Shown: positions 1,161 to 30,829, numbered from the stretch's first letter. The stretch: DNA of 38,155 bases from Chiloscyllium plagiosum (GCF_004010195.1 NC_057749.1:8744293-8782447); one strand, 5' to 3'. Made by a program: numbers and translations. Notes: generated by a model not told the origin, from the sequence alone.

Positions 1161-1414
1161 CATTGCACATCTGAAGTGAAGAGTTTGATGATATAGATCT
1201 ATAAGTTGTGAGAATGCTGGGACAGGGGTTTTGGTTCTGAATGGTGTACATGATGGATGAAGGGAAAGGGTCAAGGGACATATGAAAGTTCCTCCTGCTC
1301 AACCCACCGAGAATGAGATTTTATTTTCCCTTACAGTCCAACCATGGAAATAATAAGCAGCAGAGAAACGTGTTGTCAAAACAGTTCAGGAAGACTAGTG
1401 ACCGTTGTTGATGG

Positions 1415-1710
1415 ATGGCTCAGTGGTTAGCACTGCTGCCTCATAGCACCCACAGACTTGGGTTCGATTCCACCTTGTGGCAACTCTGAGTGGAGTTTGT
1501 ACATTCTCCCTGTGTCTCCTGGTGCTCCGGTTTCCTCCCACAATCAAAGGATGTGCAGTTGAGTTGGATTAGCCTGGCCAAATTACCCCGTGGTGTGCAG
1601 GCTAGGGAGATTAGCTGTGGGAAATGCTCGGTCAGGGGTCTGGGAGCAATGGCCTTTGGAGGGTCAGTGCAAACCTGATGGATCAAATGGCCTCAATCTG
1701 CACTGTAGGT
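1415..1710 (+). mobile_element. HE1-type tRNA SINE (V-SINE)
   Basis: A-box TGGCTCAGTGG, B-box GGTTCGATTCC, V-domain GTGGAGTTTGTACATTCTCCC. Confidence 0.85.
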
Positions 1711-1714
1711 ATGC

Positions 1715-2045
1715 TGTGGTGGGATGCAGAAATCACCAGCATTAATTGCCCATTCTTAATTGTCCAGAGGCCAGTTAAAAGTTGCCCACATTACTGGAGT
1801 CACACATCGGTGAGACTGGGTAAGAATGAACAGATATCCTTCCTTAAAGAGCATAGTGAATCAGATGGGGTTTTTACATCAATAGTAAGATGGTCACCGT
1901 GAGGCCAAGTTTTAAATTCCAGATTTTTATTGAATTTAAATTTCACCATTTACTGTCATGGGATTTGAATCTACATCACCAATGCATGAGACTGGGTCTT
2001 TCTATTAATTCTCCAGCAGCAATATTACTCAGCCACTACTTCTCC
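1715..2045 (-). mobile_element. tRNA-derived SINE (family 2)
   Basis: Reverse complement of the 7048-7345 element (AATTCCAGATTTTTATTGAATT, GGGATTTGAA). Confidence 0.65.
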
Positions 2046-2061
2046 TGAACAAATGAAGGAT

Positions 2062-2265
2062 CATAGAGTCATAGAGATGTACAGCGTGGAAACGGATGCT
2101 TGGGTCCAACTCAGTCTAGCCCCATGTGCCAGCATTTTGCCCATATCTCTCTAAACCCTTCCAGTTGATGTACCCATCCAGATGCCTTTTAAATGTTATA
2201 TTCGTACCAGCCTCCACCACTTCCTCCAGCAGCTTATTCCACTTGCACACCATCTGGGAGTTGAA
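2062..2265 (-). mobile_element. HER1/CR1 LINE 3' end
   Basis: TCATAGAGTCATAGAG tail; minus-strand EEVVEAGTNITFKRHLDGY. Confidence 0.85.
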
Positions 2266-2754
2266 GCCTGCACCTCTCACATACTCACTCACCACACAGC
2301 CCAAAGCTGGAATCACAGCACTGGACCAATGAGCTGGTAAGATAATCTAAGTTCAGCAATGAGCAGATGGCACAGCATGGTGAGGTGGAGGGTATCGAAG
2401 GCTCAAGGTAGGGAGAGGGGCACCGGAGTAGTTTATCAGAGGGGAGGCAGGATGAGTCAACACTTTCAGAGATGGACTAGGCAAGACTAAACGATCCCAA
2501 TACTCGAAGGCAGCGAGGCGGTTGGGAGGAATAGGCTTAAGAACTCTGAGTGGGTAGGATGTGCCAGTTGAGATAAGGTTAGCCACATGAGAGATAGTAG
2601 GGCAGAGAGCAGACAGCTCACTCAATATGAGGATAGGATAAAGGAACAAGGCTGTCGAATAAGGTGGGTTAGAAATTAATCTCTACTGCCGTAAGACCAT
2701 AAACACTTTGAGGATGTCGCTGTTTGAGTTTCTCCAGCAATGTGTTTTTATGTT

Positions 2755-3042
2755 CCAACAGAGAAAATGCTGGAAAATCTCAGCAGGTCTGGCAGCATCT
2801 GTAAGGAGAGAAAAGAGCTGACGTTTTGAGTCTAATTGACTCTTTGTCAAAGCTAAAAAAAAGGGAGAAATAGGAAGATATTCATACTAGGTCCCCCTTT
2901 TTTTAGCTTTGACAAAGAGTCAGTTAGACTCGAAACATCAGCTCCTTTGTCTCCTTACAGATGCTGCCAGACCTGCTGAGATTTTCCAGCATTTTCTCTG
3001 TTGGTTTCAGATTCCAGCATCTGCAGTAATTTACTTTTATCC
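2755..3042. mobile_element. Palindromic PLE-like element with two inverted hammerhead motifs, 17-bp TSD
   Basis: Inverted arms of about 110 bp (about 2755-2865 and 2895-3004). TGTGTTTTTATGTTCCA at 2741-2757 and 3043-3059. Confidence 0.8.
2905..2943 (+). ncRNA. Minimal type-I hammerhead ribozyme motif, U3-A8 variant
   Basis: AGCT-TTGACAA-A-GAGTC-agtta-GACTC-GAAA-ca-TC-AGCT: stem I, core, stem II, GAAA, UH triplet, stem I. Mirror copy on the minus strand at 2816-2854. Confidence 0.6.
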
Positions 3043-3149
3043 TGTGTTTTTATGTTCCATTGTTCCCTGCCTATGTGTAGCAGTTACAGGGATCAAACAC
3101 AAGATGGAGCAAGAGAGAGATAATTCATGTTAAAACCTCCAGTTAAGAT

Positions 3150-3650
3150 GATCTGATTGAATCTATTACGTTGTTCATTTTACTGTAGCAGATTTATAAA
3201 TGTGTTTCAGACTAAGTCCTGTTCACGCATCACCCTTGTGTTTGTTCGCCTTCCAGTCCATCTCAGTTTTAAAATTCCCACCGAGTTCTACCATGTTTTC
3301 ACTCCTCTGTCACTTAGTCCAGCCACACTTTTAATGTATCCCTCTAAGCTCTGCTTATAGCACCCAGCTGGCTTGATGTGCAGCATGCTTGCATTAACAT
3401 TGATGCATGGCCACATTGTGTTCCTGATAACAAGGGGAGCGTTGCCTGTGCATGGCCTGTCTGTTTAGCCAATGCACCCCAGTGGCCAGGCATCCACACT
3501 GCTGGGGGACATGTTGTGACAAACCCTTTGGGATCTTCACGTTCCTCTAATGCTGGCCACTCATGCTTCCTGGAATTTCTCCATCCCATCAACAGTGAGC
3601 ATCACAGTCTAGATCCTAAATTATGGAATACCTTCCCCTCTTCCATCCAG
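3150..3650 (+). mobile_element. Decayed L2-clade LINE 3' fragments
   Basis: SRITLV..LPVHLSFKI and LDPKLWNTFP resemble the L2 ORF2 C-terminus (HITP..LPV..RIDFKI; GPKLWNSLP). Confidence 0.45.
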
Positions 3651-4479: not shown

Positions 4480-5270
4480 AGTGAGGATGTTTTGCTTCAG
4501 TTCCATGGAGCATTAGTGAGATCACATCTCAAATACTATGTGCAGTTTTGGTCGTCTTATTTGCTGAAGAATGTAAAAGCAATGAAAGCAGTTCAGATGG
4601 ATTTGATACCTGGAATGAGTGAGTTATCTTTGAAGGAAAGGTTGGGCTGGAGTTTACAAGAGTAAGAGGGGGTGACGTTTTGAAGTGTTCAAGACCTTAA
4701 ATGGTCTTGACAAAGTGAACATGGGAAGAATGTTTCCTTGTGTGGGTGGGTCCACAACTCAGGGACACTGTTTTAAGATTCATCCTTCCAGGGTGGAGAT
4801 GAAGACATTGCTTGTTCCTTCAGAAGATGGAGGAGAAAGTGAGGACTGCAGATGCTGGAGATCAGAGCTGAAAATGTGTTGCTGGAAAAGTTCAGCAGGT
4901 CAGGCAGCATCCAGGGAACAGGAGAATCGACGTTTCGGGCATAAGAGAAGGGCTTATGCCCGAAACATCGATTCTCCTGTTCCTTGGATGCTGCCTGACC
5001 TGCTGCGCTTTTCCAGCAACACATTTTCAGCTCCTTCAGAAGATGTACAACTTGGGAACTCTCTGCCTCAGAGGGCAGTTGAGGTGGGACTGAGGTGGAG
5101 GGGAGGGTTGTCATTGAATATTTTTAGGAAGTAGATTCTTATTACACAAAGATGTCAAGGATTATCAAGGGTGGGTGGAAATTATGCATCTCTAACACAA
5201 ACAGAAGAGCAATGATTTTACTGAACGGTGGAATGAGCTTGAGGAAGCGAATGGTCTGTTTCTGTTTCAG
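4480..5270 (+). mobile_element. Older CR1-clade LINE 3' fragment, interrupted by a PLE-like insert
   Basis: GTGAGATCACATCTCAAATACTATGTGCAGTTTTGGTC (VRxHLxYxVQFW); FKTLNGLDKV; GNSLPQRAVEV. Confidence 0.75.
4830..5031. mobile_element. Palindromic PLE-like element, collapsed centre, 14-bp TSD
   Basis: Inverted arms of about 80 bp (4866-4945 and 4953-5032). TCCTTCAGAAGATG at 4816-4829 and 5032-5045. Confidence 0.85.
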
Positions 5271-12384: not shown

Positions 12385-14630
12385 CGCTAATGAGAGACAC
12401 TGTGTCATTCAGGTAAAGGGACATCTGACTGAAGAGGTGCTGGAGGTTTTAAAACACATGAGTTGGAGGCTTTCAAAAGTGTGATAACAAGAGTTTGGAG
12501 GCATTATTACCCTTCACTCCTGTTAGAGTGAAGGGTAAGGCTGGTAAGAGCAGGGAGTCGTGGATGAGTAAAGACATTGAGGTTCTGGTCCAGCATAAGA
12601 AGGAGGCATAGTTAGATGTAGGAGAGAGTGAGGACTGCAGATGTTGGAGATCAGGGTCGAGACTGTGGTGCTGGAAAAGCACAACAGGTCAGGCAATGTC
12701 CGAGGAGCAGGAGAATCGACGTTTCAGGCAAGGGCTCTTCATCAGGATTGAGGATTTAGTTATAGACAGTTTGGATCAAGTGAATCTCTTGAGTGTAAAG
12801 GGTGTAGAGACATTCTTAAGAGGGAAATTGGGAGAGCAGAAAGCAGCCATGAGATTGCCTTGGCTGATAAGGTTAAGGATAATCCAAAGAGATTGTGCAA
12901 GTACATTAAGAGTAAAAGAACAACTAGGGAGAGAACAGGGCCCCTTAAAGATCAATGAGGTTGTCGATATGTTGAACCTCAGGAGGTCGGAGAGATACTG
13001 AATTAATATTTCACATCAGTTTTTACTAGAGAGAAAGAAATGGAGGCTAGGGAATTTGGGGAAATAATGATGTTATAAAACAGTTAATGTTACAGAAGAG
13101 GAAATGCTGGCAGAAAATATAAAGTTGGATAAATCTCTGGGACCTGATCAAGTGTATCCCAGGATGTTGTGGGAAGTTAGGGAGGAAATTGCAGGGCCCC
13201 AAGCAGAGGTATTTGTATTATCTGTAACCGTAAATGAGGTGCTGGAGGACTGGAGGGTGGCTAACGTTGTCTTTATTTAAGAAAGGCTGTAAGGAGAAGC
13301 CTGGGAACGATAGACCTGTGGGTCTGACATCCAGTAAGTTGGTGGAGGAGATTCTGAAAGATAGGATATTACATGCATTTGGAGGGGCAAGGACTGATTA
13401 GGGATAGTCAGCGTGGTGTTGTGGCGAGGGAAGTTGTGACGCACAAACTTGAGTTTTTTGAGGAAGTGACCAAAAAGATTGAGGGCAGAGCAGTAGATGT
13501 TGTTTACATGGACTTTAGTAAAGCCTTTGACAAGGTTCCGAATGCTAGACTAATTAGTAAAGTTAGATCACGTGGGATTCAGGATGAGCTTGCCAATTCG
13601 ATACAAAATTGGCTTTACAGAAGGAGAGAGAGGAAGGTATTGGAGGGTTGTTTCTGGAACTGGGGGCCTGTGACCAATGGTGTTCCACAGGGATTTGTAC
13701 TGTGTTCACTGTTGTTTATCATTTATGTAAACAATTTTGAAGAGAATTTAGGATGTGTTGTTAGTAAGTTCGCAGATGACGCCAAAATTGGTGGTATATT
13801 TGACAGTGAAGAAGGTTATCTAAGATTACAAAGAGATCTTGAACAATTGGGTCAATGGGCTGAGGAGTGGCAGAAGGAGATTGATTTGGATAAATGCGAG
13901 GTATTGCATTTGGGTAAAACAAACAGGGCAGGACTTGTACAATTAATGGTAGGGCCCTGGGTAGTGTTGTAGAACAGATATCTAGGGGTTCAGGTACATT
14001 TTTTTTTTAAATTTGCCTCACATGTAGACAGGATGATTAGGAACTCGCTTGGCACACTTGCCTTTGGTGCTCAGACCTAATGACTATAGGAGTTACATGT
14101 CATGTTGAGCTTATACAGGACATTGGTGAGGCCTTTTCCGGAGTTTTGGTGTCCCTGCCATAGAACGATATTATTAAATTGGAGATGGTTCAGAAAAGAT
14201 GTTGCTGGGAATGGGAAGGCTAGAGTTATAAAGATAGGCTGGGAATTTCTTTCACTGGAGCGTAGGAGATTGAGGGGTTGACCTTTTAAAAATCATGAGG
14301 GGCAAAGATAAGATGTATGGCAAGGGCCTTTTCCCTAGGGTGGGGGAATTCAAAACTAGGGGGTATATCTTTTCAAGGTGAAAGATTCAAAAAAGGCCCA
14401 AGGGAATGTCTTTTATACAGAGAGTGGTTCACTTGTGGAATGAACTGCCAGAGGAAGTGGTGGATGCACGCACAGTTATAACATTTAAAGAATTTTGAAT
14501 AAGTATGTGAATAGAAATAGTTTGGAGGGATATGGGCCAAATACAGGCAGGTGGGACTAGTTTAGTTTGGGAACATGTTTGGTGTGGATTAATTGGACTG
14601 AAGGGCCTGTTTCCTTGCTGTATGACTCAA
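12385..14630 (+). mobile_element. HER1/CR1 LINE, ~2.2 kb 5'-truncated copy with decayed RT
   Basis: ORF 13373-13972 has VDVVYMDFSKAFDKVP, GVPQGFVL and SKFADD. Frameshifted; CR1 3' tail present. Confidence 0.95.
12621..12749 (-). mobile_element. PLE-like hammerhead-bearing element nested in CR1
   Basis: Same start as 931 and 4830. Minus strand AATC-CTGATGA-A-GAGC-cctt-GCCT-GAAA-cg-TC-GATT. Confidence 0.8.
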
Positions 14631-18194: not shown

Positions 18195-18295
18195 ATAAAA
18201 ACAGAAAGTGCTAGAAAAGCTCAGCAGGTTTGGCAGCATTTGTGGAGAGTGAAACAGATGTTTCTCTTTCAAGTCCAGCGACTCTTTGTCAACCC
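18195..18295 (-). mobile_element. PLE-like element arm with U3-A8 hammerhead remnant
   Basis: Minus strand TTGACAA-A-GAGTC-gctg-GACTT-GAAA at 18292-18267. Confidence 0.6.
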
Positions 18296-19652: not shown

Positions 19653-19755
19653 CAGTCCTGATGAAGGGTCACTGGACCTGAAATGTTAACTCTGCTTTCT
19701 CTCCACAGATGATGCCAGACCTGCTGAGTTTTCCCAGCCATTTCAGTTTTTGTGG
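19653..19755 (+). mobile_element. PLE-like element arm with hammerhead motif, sense to ARID3 intron 1
   Basis: CTGATGA(19658-19664)-A-GGGTC-actg-GACCT-GAAA-tg-TT-AACT. Confidence 0.7.
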
Positions 19756-21534: not shown

Positions 21535-21960
21535 AAGAGTTGCTGGGACTGATGGGTTTGAGTTACAGGAAGAGGCTGGATCGACCTTTTCACTGGAGAG
21601 TAGAAGGTTGATAGGTGACCTTATAGAGGTTTATAAAAACATGAGGGGCATGGGTAAGGTGAATGACAGGTGTCTTTTCCATAGAGTATTTCACAACTGG
21701 GGGCACAGTATTCGGGTGACAGGGGAACTTTTTTTTTAACACAGAGTGTGTTTTGTGTGTGAGATGAACCTCCAGAGGTAGTGGTGGATGTGGGTAGAGT
21801 TACAATGCTTAAAAGATATTTAGATAAGTGCATGAATTGGACTGGTTTGGAGGGATATGGGCTAAGCGCAGATAGGTGGGACTCGCTTACTTTGAGATTA
21901 TGGTCGGCATGGGCTGGTTGGACCGAAGGGTTTGTTTCTGTGCTGTATGACTCAATTACT
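21535..21960 (+). mobile_element. HER1/CR1 LINE 3' end
   Basis: FSLESRRLIGDLIEVYKNMRG; tail. Confidence 0.88.
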
Positions 21961-21985
21961 CTAAGTACCCGTCCCAATAAGATTT

Positions 21986-22030
21986 AAAACCGAGAATGCT
22001 GGAGAAACTCAGCAGGTCTGGCAGTATCTG

Positions 22031-22061
<31 letters not shown>

Positions 22062-28682: not shown

Positions 28683-29540
28683 TGTGTCTTGCCTGTCATC
28701 AGCCCAATGGAGAGGAGGGGGACGGGGGAGTATTTCAAATCATTTCAATGATTGAACAACACTGATGTGGAATCCTGAATTGTGACCACTGCTCACTGCA
28801 GAGCTTGCTGGAGTGAGATGCAGGGTGGTTAGGATGTGTGTGTTTAACAGATCGCTGATGTATTAAGCAGTTTGAGGGAGTTGGGAGGTTGCTGCAGAGG
28901 AGAGCAATGAAAGATAGCGAGTAGTATATTTCTTGACAGAGTTGAGAGGTTATTAGTGTAACTGTACCACAAACCAGTGTTGGTAATAGCTGCCATCTGT
29001 TCGTATGAAAATTGAAACTGTGATGTTTGGCAGGTGGCCAAGCTGAGCTTTCAAAGAACACTCACCACAAGCCCCTCTGGCACAGCTCCTTGTTTTGGAT
29101 GGGTTTCAAAAGATTTATAACCAGCCCGTGCCAACAATACTTGGCCTGTCAAGAGCGCGAATATGCAGGTGCTTTAGCGTTGCTTAGCTCTTAATTGAAT
29201 TAACCGGCACCTGTCAGCAGGAGGCTTGCTGTGTGTTTTGCTGCCAAACACTGAGCTCTCTTGGCTGGAGCAGGACATCCCAAATTACTTGGGCATTTTT
29301 CATTCCTTCCTTCATTGGTGCAATCCCTTTCAGAGCATCCTGAGGCCAGCAAAGGTTACTGCTTTGAAGTAGATAGTACAGTGTCCTTCCTTCTGCGCTG
29401 TAAGATCATACCAATGATAAATACCAGATCGTTGGATGTTTGATTAAAATTGTTGGCCGGCATACCGAGGGTGAACGTGTTCCCCTCTTCGAAATAGCAC
29501 GGTGCGATTTCGACATTGCCTTGAGCTCCCTGTTATGTCA

Positions 29541-30293
29541 TGGCCCTCCGGCACTGCAGCACTCCCTCTGTTATACAGTGGCCCCTCCGGCCCTGCAGCA
29601 CTCCCTCTGTTATACGGTGGCACCTCTGGCACTGCAGCACTCCCTCTGTTATACAGTGGTCCCTCTGGCGTTATACAGTGGCACCTCCGGCACTGCAGCA
29701 CTCCCTCTGTTATACAGTGGCACCTCCGGCACTGCAGCACTCCCTCTGTTATACAGTGGCACCTCCGGCACTGCAGCACTCCCTCTGTTATACAGTGGCA
29801 CCTCCGGCACTGCAGCACTCCCTCTGTTATACAGTGGCACCTCCGGCACTGCAGCACTCCCTCTGTTATACAGTGGCACCTCCGGCACTGCAGCACTCCC
29901 TCTGTTATACAGTGGCACCTCCGGCACTGCAGCACTCCCTCTGTTATACAGTGGCACCTCCGGCACTGCAGCACTCCCTCTGTTATACAGTGGCACCTCC
30001 GGCACTGCAGCACTCCCTCTGTTATACAGTGGCACCTCCGGCACTGCAGCACTCCCTCTGTTATACAGTGGCACCTCCGGCACTGCAGCACTCCCTCTGT
30101 TATACAGTGGCACCTCCGGCACTGCAGCACTCCCTCTGTTATACAGTGGCACCTCCGGCACTGCAGCACTCCCTCTGTTATACAGTGGCATCTCCGGCCC
30201 TGCAGCACTCCCTCTGTTACACAGTGGCCCCTCCGGCACTGCAGCACTCCCTCTGTTATACAGTGGCATCTCCGGCACTGCAGCACTCCCTCA
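29541..30293. repeat. 39-bp minisatellite (GGCACCTCCGGCACTGCAGCACTCCCTCTGTTATACAGT), ~19 units
   Basis: Near-perfect central units, variant edge units, and one truncated unit near 29660-29680. Confidence 0.97.
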
Positions 30294-30829
30294 GTCCCAT
30301 TGGTCTGTGGAATGTGAATCTCTGACCCAAAGCTCAGAGTGCCGCTGTGGAGCCGCGGTTGACACCATCAAATGGGCTTGCCCTGAGGTAGTTCAGTATT
30401 CTTTTAAGATATCCTGCTTGCCTCCTGTCTGTCTCCACACCAGGCCCACATTCTGCCCAGTGCAATGAGGCATGATCTCCTGTCCGCTGTCACCTACTCT
30501 GCACACTCTCTATCCTACTCTGTGTTCCCTGTCCACGTATACAATATTCTTTACACAAGTGTTGATGGGCTGTGGGGTATGCTGATCAGAGGCACGTTCC
30601 CTTCAAGTCCCACCCTTCATGGCAATGAACTGCCTCTCTCCAAGGTGTCGGTCAGAATATGGAGCCCATGATGACGGCTTTGCCCAACTCCTCCTCCTGC
30701 AGGGCACTGAGACCAGTTTGAGAGTGCCTGGTGTGATTGCTGCACGGAAGGTGGCCATTCAGCCCGTTGAGTCTGTGCTGCTAACTATAAAGAACCAACG
30801 AGACAGAGTTCTGATGTATGAGAACGTGT

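Follow-up and report, generated by a model that had tools for sequence, protein, structure and literature searches.

Minimal hammerhead ribozymes (min-HHRs) of Penelope-like elements (PLEs) have been described as having one base between positions 9 and 10.1, a G10.1-C11.1 pair, a palindromic 15.2-16.2 stretch, and a short helix I (Cervera and de la Pena, 2014; PMC4209133). That description also reports that these motifs cleave weakly in vitro, even as dimers, and that the Cercyon PLE of Schistosoma mansoni has a U3-A8 min-HHR family with ~1300 matches. Covariation of the core pair from C3-G8 to U3-A8 was found in several hammerheads by Perreault et al. (2011; PMC3088659), who relate that such ribozymes had earlier been shown to be active in vitro; the premise of the original prediction for the locus described here, that C3 pairs with G8 and that U3-A8 is a tolerated variant, was thus already in print. 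Insertions of PLEs are marked by an inverted copy adjoining the 5' end and by an optional tail of 30-40 bp at one end (Craig et al., 2021, PMC8557442; PMC11167929). For the Poseidon PLE of Anolis carolinensis (PAc), hammerhead cleavage was reported to be unnecessary for insertion in vitro, and no reads ended at the cleavage site (PMC11167929), and Naiad PLEs are described as proliferating well without hammerheads (PMC8557442). The role of PLE min-HHRs is therefore unsettled, as they cleave poorly in vitro, are dispensable for Anolis insertion, and are absent from some PLE clades. Animal non-LTR retrozymes, which are non-autonomous hammerhead repeats defined by tandem arrays and circular RNAs and thought to derive from PLE pLTRs, have been described in vertebrates, among them one cartilaginous fish (Cervera and de la Pena, 2020, PMC7229834; Li et al., 2026, preprint). 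A literature search for PLE hammerheads in sharks returned no shark-specific report; its only match was a review that uses 'shark' for the shape of the motif.

We analyzed a stretch of 38,155 nucleotides from Chiloscyllium plagiosum (NC_057749.1:8744293-8782447; below, the window), in which both arms of a palindrome at 2755-3042 carry a hammerhead motif. Judged from the sequence, the carrier is a non-autonomous repeat of ~175 nt that starts with a putative minimal type I hammerhead devoid of helix III. With the min-HHRs of PLE pLTRs it shares a type I layout that lacks helix III and loop 3, a single unpaired base separating A9 from G10.1, the G10.1-C11.1 pair, the palindromic 15.2-16.2 stretch, and the short helix I; the core boxes (C/U)UGANGA ... 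GAAA and pairable positions 3 and 8, also diagnostic of min-HHRs, were likewise found. It shares, too, their occurrence as thousands of dispersed, mostly single copies with some close opposite-strand pairs and, with the Cercyon PLE, the presence of U3-A8 in place of C3-G8 in one family. Unlike the min-HHRs described in PMC4209133, the repeat resides in a vertebrate, its helix II has 5 bp rather than 7-8 bp, and its carrier is a mini-element. The bacterial and phage U3-A8 hammerheads of PMC3088659 show the same covariation of this tertiary pair, but they are described as complete three-helix motifs of type I or II in intergenic positions, whereas the motif here is without helix III and is carried by a retroelement. 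Thus, the U3-A8 hammerhead was already known (in 2011, and in 2014 for the Schistosoma PLE min-HHR), and a vertebrate example is added here. No match to the Rfam hammerhead models (types I, II, III, HH9, and HH10) was obtained over the whole window at the gathering score or at E<=10, as expected for motifs without helix III.

Features of the palindromic insertion and of the third TTGACAA copy in the window
Feature	Position	Strand	Remarks
Left copy of target-site duplication (TSD), 17 bp	2741..2757	.	Exact direct repeat of 3043-3059
Inverted element copy, subfamily C, without tail	2755..2888	-	Palindrome arm 2755-2865 plus leader
Minimal hammerhead motif, - arm	2816..2854	-	U3 2850, A8 2845; predicted cut between 2820 and 2819
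Direct element body, subfamily C	2889..3004	+	Arm 2894-3004 plus alignment with subfamily copies
Minimal hammerhead motif, + arm	2905..2943	+	U3 2909, A8 2914; predicted cut between 2939 and 2940
Tail extension, 38 nt, + arm alone	3005..3042	+	Without counterpart in the left arm
Right copy of TSD, 17 bp	3043..3059	.	Exact repeat of 2741-2757
Third TTGACAA copy, decayed, subfamily B	18267..18292	-	Helix II loop GCTG, B-type body

The two arms of the palindrome are each 111 nt long, are 95% complementary, and differ at 6 sites, two of which are the CpG-type lesions described below. The whole consists of an inverted copy and a direct copy with a tail, enclosed by a TSD whose left copy overlaps the start of the left arm by its last 3 bases; at its 5' end, the inverted copy extends into a TATA-like leader (2863-2888). 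All features of a PLE-mobilised insertion (inverted 5' copy, optional tail, and TSD) were therefore present, and the locus is a single insertion of PLE type. Consequently, its two arms stem from one event and do not count as two independent witnesses. As in PAc (PMC11167929), the tail is optional; among 29 subfamily C copies with a readable 3' part, it was present in 19 and absent in 10, and the latter stop just upstream of the tail position. PAc and other PLE insertions (PMC11167929; PMC8557442) also share with this repeat the inverted copy adjoining the 5' end, and PAc shares a hammerhead made of stems I and II alone and, in the published description, the absence of RNA or copies ending at the predicted cut site. 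PAc, however, is autonomous, with an ORF that starts within the hammerhead, whereas the present repeat is very short and has no coding sequence. Among the first 100 genome-wide matches listed, 10 pairs were arranged head to head (-/+), with spacings of 29-395 nt, none were in the opposite (+/-) order, and 3 were close pairs on the same strand; most copies were single or head to head. The head-to-tail tandem arrays that help to define non-LTR retrozymes were thus not seen among these 100 matches.

Several further observations concern the build of these insertions. A second palindromic insertion at 4830-5032 belongs to subfamily A, which has the canonical core, and is flanked by a 13-bp duplication (4817-4829 / 5033-5045). 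Its left arm is longer and bears the tail, its build is otherwise that of 2755-3042, and the core box is absent from both of its arms because the hairpin turn lies within helix II. Hairpin joints between inverted and direct copies lie at fixed points (L087, L090, and L097, with an identical joint; L089; L094 and L095; and pairs such as 73028629/73028656). In one class, the two copies mirror each other exactly about the AGCT of helix I, which is its own complement; in a second class, antisense ...CTGAC runs straight into sense ...AAAGGG, with TGAC shared. The recurrence of these joints suggests microhomology-guided strand switching during the making of the inverted copy. Full-length subfamily C copies open with a TATA-like box, TATAAATA, ~33 nt upstream of AGCT; this leader was seen at L060:1461-1500, L076, L070, L062, and L043, and it persists as a remnant in the inverted copy of the palindrome. 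From this spacing, an internal promoter with transcripts starting exactly at helix I would explain the copies that start at AGCT. Finally, the 9-mer TTCCAGCAT occurs twice in the palindrome, at 2983-2991, just before the tail-less 3' end, and at 3013-3021, within the tail, and the pair recurs at corresponding places in subfamily C loci. Such a pair would be in keeping with the report that reverse transcription of the Anolis PLE starts at two adjacent sites (PMC11167929).

Each minimal hammerhead of subfamily C has a helix I of 4 bp (AGCU/AGCU), the core with an A bulged out behind A9, and a helix II of 5 bp; on the 3' side, GAA is followed by a palindromic ACGU before C17. In the + arm, AGCT (2905-2908), TTGACAA (2909-2915), and the extra A (2916) are followed by helix II (GAGTC/GACTC with loop AGTTA, 2917-2931), GAA (2932-2934), ACATC (2935-2939), and AGCT (2940-2943). 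The - arm mirrors this arrangement at 2854-2816, with TTGACAA at 2850-2844. That TTGACAA stands in both arms and at 18267-18292, in the place of CTGATGA or CTGAAGA in sister copies, was confirmed by direct reading; near 19680, 1050, 34080, and 37190, sister copies read CTGATGA, CTGAAGA, or CTGGTGA. The original prediction also held for the single CpG-type lesion assigned to each arm. In the + arm, ACGTC has become ACATC by decay of G16.2 to A (CG to CA, 2937); in the - arm, G12 has decayed to A (GAAA to AAAA, 2827). The resulting C15.2/A16.2 mismatch in the + arm and the G12-to-A change in the - arm would leave the motifs dead or weakened, so that both hammerheads of 2755-3042 are, as judged from these lesions, very probably inert.

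Two sequence variants were seen beside these features. At 2918 and 2841, GAGTC replaces GGGTC in helix II, so that pair 10.2-11.2 becomes A-U instead of a G-U wobble. This variant occurs in 6 of the first 100 subfamily C matches listed (~6%), several-fold above the ~1% of reversions at position 3 or 8, and so it may mark a sub-lineage. In a subfamily B copy at 21950-22060 (- strand; anchored at 22025-22008), the hammerhead is separated from the conserved block by an expanded (CT)n microsatellite.

About 15 copies of the repeat occur in the window, and ~180 more were found elsewhere in the genome, in stretches totalling 290 kb. These copies sort into four subfamilies, A, B, C, and D, whose parts come in one order: the first strand of a short helix I, the core of seven bases, an extra A, a helix II of 4-5 bp with a loop of 4-5 nt, GAA, ACGU, one base (C or U), and the second helix I strand. 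Subfamily C is marked by helix II loop AGTTA and helix I AGCT. Helix I reads AGCU/AGCU in C and D and AGUU/AACU in B, and it is weaker in A. Subfamily D (L098-L101 and L017:1495-1538) is diverged, with the same AGCT helix I as C, C3-G8 (CTGATGA or CTGACGA), and U17, and its loci L098-L101 have the AGTTA loop as well. Among the copies seen, none with a canonical core stand closer to the U3-A8 subfamily than those of D; in addition, one copy with a C-type body (L105) retains CTGACGA.

Conservation of the fold was assessed in an alignment of 81 motifs (26 A, 24 B, 28 C, and 3 D), from which loci selected for a particular 3/8 state were left out, except for the 3 D rows. The hammerhead structure paired 88.3% of 912 cells, compared to 22.6-36.6% with slid partners; these cells count copies, and at the level of subfamilies every covariation represents one or two events. 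The 3-8 pair was CG in 44 motifs, UA in 27, UG in 5, and other in 2, and it was standard in 97.4% of cells. Two helix I pairs split into UA and CG between subfamilies (36/24 and 45/19), helix II pair 10.2-11.2 was GC in 34, GU in 28, and AU in 13, and the G10.1-C11.1 pair (columns 15-29) was GC in 58 and GU in 20, with 0 unpaired. The extra A between A9 and G10.1 (column 14) was invariant, and U4, G5, A6, A9, A13, A14, A15.1, and U16.1 were unchanged in 81/81 rows. G12 changed solely from G to A at its CpG (10 CA in the 78 A, B, and C rows). ACGU lies directly before H17 in all subfamilies, with its CG intact in 13/28 C rows and CpG-decayed in the rest. The two CpG sites are intact in 2/24 and 6/24 rows of B, 18/28 and 13/28 of C, and 18/26 and 15/26 of A; subfamily B is old.

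We counted the states of positions 3 and 8 throughout the genome with patterns that require exact matches elsewhere in the motif, so that all counts are lower bounds and biased toward young copies. Reversed-pattern controls gave 0 matches in every genome-wide search, compared to 1318 to 3280 for the real patterns, numbers that lie far above what chance would produce. AGTTA-loop motifs anchored by the AGCT of helix I were U3-A8 in 2117 cases, C3-A8 in 31, U3-G8 in 16, and C3-G8 in 5, and 3 or 4 of these 5 C3-G8 copies belong to subfamily D, which has a different body. U3-A8 thus accounts for 97.6% of 2169 anchored copies, and each single-mutant state for ~1%. Unanchored AGTTA-loop motifs gave U3-A8 2999, C3-A8 152, U3-G8 22, and C3-G8 13, and 7 of 10 C-type copies in a small unselected sample of 50 kb read TTGACAA. 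Single mutants at ~1% are as expected from the ordinary decay of a young subfamily, which implies that U3-A8 was already in the master copy. We conclude that the source element of subfamily C already carried the double change.

The 152 unanchored CTGACAA motifs had been taken as a candidate intermediate subfamily with C3-A8. This candidate was dropped, since the requirement for helix I left 31. Among 12 of the 152 loci that were inspected, 8 were artefacts in which the C is not position 3: 4 were hairpin joints with antisense ...CTGAC abutting a sense copy (3 of them identical), 2 were ...AAAGC/TGACAA joints, and 2 were 5' truncations.

Subfamily B behaved differently from subfamily C. A hand count of the first 100 listed of 1318 four-base-loop motifs gave CTGATGA 57, CTGACGA 13, TTGATGA 13, CTGACAA 7, CTGATAA 6, TTGACAA 3, TTGATAA 1, and TTGACGA 0. 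In these 100 motifs, T3 occurred in 17 rows and A8 in 17 rows, and both occurred together in 4 rows, compared to 2.9 expected. A8 accompanied C7 in 10/23 rows and T7 in 7/77 rows of the same 100, a preference that is the signature of decay at the C7-G8 CpG. Across the genome, TTGACAA occurs in 21 four-base-loop motifs, of which 10 are C-type copies with a one-base deletion in the loop; the remaining ~11 B-type copies in ~1308 compare to ~22 expected from T3 at 17% and C7A8 at 10%. TTGACAA at 18267-18292 is therefore most likely a coincidence of decay. The proposal that separate insertions have the double change in common is accordingly upheld within subfamily C, by 2117 of 2169 anchored copies, and fails for 18267-18292, which belongs to the older subfamily B. 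The tabulation of positions 3 and 8 that the original prediction had proposed likewise gave a divided answer, with an excess of U3-A8 in subfamily C and, in subfamily B, the independent variation that had been named beforehand as evidence against it.

The reading that we favor, to which we assign a probability of about 0.55, combines a PLE insertion, a U3-A8 pair derived from the master copy, and selection on masters to keep the hammerhead fold. In this reading, G8 would have changed to A in a master copy, probably through decay of the C7-G8 CpG, and a change of C3 to U would then have restored the 3-8 pair as U3-A8. Subfamily C inherited U3-A8 in place of C3-G8 from its master, and 2755-3042 arose as one retro-insertion of the ~175-nt repeat by the PLE machinery. 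Selection on the masters of the repeat family for the fold would account for the finding that only paired states, C-G and U-A, are seen amplified. The chief argument for selection is that the sole core differences between subfamily C and its canonical relatives, besides N7 and H17, are the two bases that pair with each other. Moreover, the bodies of the elements have diverged strongly between subfamilies while the core has been kept, and an intact core together with covarying helices I and II across four subfamilies makes selection on the fold plausible. Counting against selection, the subfamily C copies form one master lineage and so record the 3/8 covariation only once, one of its two steps fell on a hypermutable CpG, and tests at the cut site gave no signal of cleavage. 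More tentatively, and to our minds possible rather than probable, the genome may record the crossing of a fitness valley, in which CpG decay broke C3-G8 in the master, a second change restored the pair as U3-A8, and PLE mini-elements need an intact core to propagate. If that is true, vertebrate mini-elements depend on an intact hammerhead core although it is uncut RNA that is retrotransposed, and the crossing would provide evidence, from within a genome, that minimal hammerheads have a function, which is still called unclear in published work.

The alternative that survives best is neutral hitch-hiking, in which the hammerhead is dispensable, G8 to A by CpG decay and C3 to T by an unrelated transition became fixed in a master, and amplification was independent of the pair. 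We consider this doubtful as the full explanation, yet it agrees with the single master lineage, the position of G8 in a former CpG, where the first 100 four-base-loop motifs show the preference of A8 for C7 given above, and the independent variation of positions 3 and 8 in old subfamily B. Moreover, cleaved RNA is not the template, and the published descriptions of PAc and of Naiad PLEs cast doubt on a need for cleavage (PMC11167929; PMC8557442). By contrast, neutrality does not lead one to expect that the only changed core bases, apart from the free N7 and H17, would pair with each other, that the other core bases would be constant in four subfamilies with strongly different bodies, or that compensatory changes would separate the subfamilies in helices I and II. 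The same swap has also occurred independently in the hammerheads of the Schistosoma PLE and of phages (PMC4209133; PMC3088659).

Evidence for cleavage itself was sought in copies and in RNA. By genome-wide pattern count, 3006 copies continue through the predicted cut site. At that site, 29 copies had neither of the two expected preceding bases, and 19 of these share the prefix AA, which leaves ~10 candidate 5' ends; a control site 4 nt downstream gave 19 matches, of which 9 look like a 2-nt deletion, leaving ~10, where the internal-deletion readings at both sites are taken from the recurrent prefixes alone. In these genome-wide pattern counts, 5' ends were thus not enriched at the predicted cut site compared to the control. 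The commonest 5' end was instead the first base of helix I, in 12/32 copies, to which many hairpin joints centred on AGCT can be added. Two raw-read RNA runs were searched, both poly(A) single-cell. One was without any matching reads; in the other, 192 reads fell on the repeat, with no pile-up of starts or ends, and 98% continued into unlike sequence, which implies that the repeat is a passenger in host transcripts. In computed folds of a consensus-like copy, the hammerhead layout had -9.1 kcal/mol, compared to -10.6 kcal/mol for the minimum-energy fold, which adds a competing GAC/GUC pairing. An intermolecular ACGU duplex was weak (-3.1 kcal/mol, computed), whereas the RNA hairpin of the whole palindrome reached a computed -196.3 kcal/mol, and according to this folding model, a transcript through 2755-3042 would form the long hairpin instead of hammerheads. 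Selection for cleavage, which had been argued from the sharing of the double change by separate insertions, was therefore not supported on that argument, as the copy counts reflect one master lineage, G8 lay in a former CpG, and no signal of cleavage was obtained.

These results bear as well on a second alternative, in which the fold is selected and catalysis is not: the hammerhead-shaped 5' module would be a structural handle, for instance one recognized by the PLE reverse transcriptase or one that stabilizes the RNA, and the 3-8 pair would serve its shape. We judge this unlikely. It is consistent with the uncut motif in the 3006 retrotransposed copies that run through the site, with the dominant 5' end at the first base of helix I and the AGCT hairpin joints, and with the description of unprocessed RNA as the main substrate in the Anolis PLE (PMC11167929). 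However, the invariant bases are exactly the catalytic ones (G5, A6, A9, A13, and A14, and G12 save for CpG decay), a cleavable NUH site is kept with them, and a mere scaffold would not require catalytic bases.

Independent decay after insertion, in which positions 3 and 8 drift separately in each copy, describes 18267-18292 and subfamily B well, where ~11 double changes in ~1308 motifs stand against ~22 expected. For the palindrome it is false, since the state is common to both arms and so predates the insertion, and for its subfamily C it is refuted by the anchored counts, with 97.6% of 2169 copies paired and each single-mutant state at ~1%; as an account of the locus, it is very improbable. 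Least probable of all, to the point of being negligible, is an origin of the palindrome as a gene for a microRNA-like hairpin or as a DNA transposon of the foldback (MITE) type. Its very stable RNA hairpin speaks for this, as do plant miRNA precursor matches over 2813-2946 (MIR9563 and MIR848, at 59.7 and 42 bits, below the gathering score of 90); sub-threshold miRNA-hairpin matches on the palindromes were all that the Rfam scans returned. These matches, however, reflect what any long perfect hairpin would give, the two arms differ in length because one alone bears a tail, the TSD measures 17 bp at this locus but 13 bp at the sister locus 4830-5032, and most copies of the repeat are single rather than palindromic.

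Two subfamilies of similar young age in this genome differ in the core pair, one with canonical C3-G8 and the other with U3-A8 in at least 2000-3000 well-preserved copies. This pair of subfamilies is a natural double-mutant comparison for whether the core pair, and hence the ribozyme, matters for mobilisation.

Among 30 ORFs scanned, five RVT_1 ORFs scored above the Pfam cut-off. Reverse-transcriptase ORFs of this type, with E values of 1e-15 to 9e-35, lie at 13358-13969 (+) in the window, L078:1616-3025 (-), L083:9402-9998 (+), and L025:2480-3025 (+), and the RT-bearing insertion in L078 splits a subfamily C copy just 3' of the GAAA box. Words of subfamily C occur in sequencing runs under six organism labels, and the repeat or a close relative of it is probably common to several species. 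Finally, a 354-aa open frame at 29404-30465 (+) has a sub-threshold match to the Pcf11 RFEGP repeat (30.6 bits, cut-off 43) and may represent an exon from a PCF11-like gene of the host.
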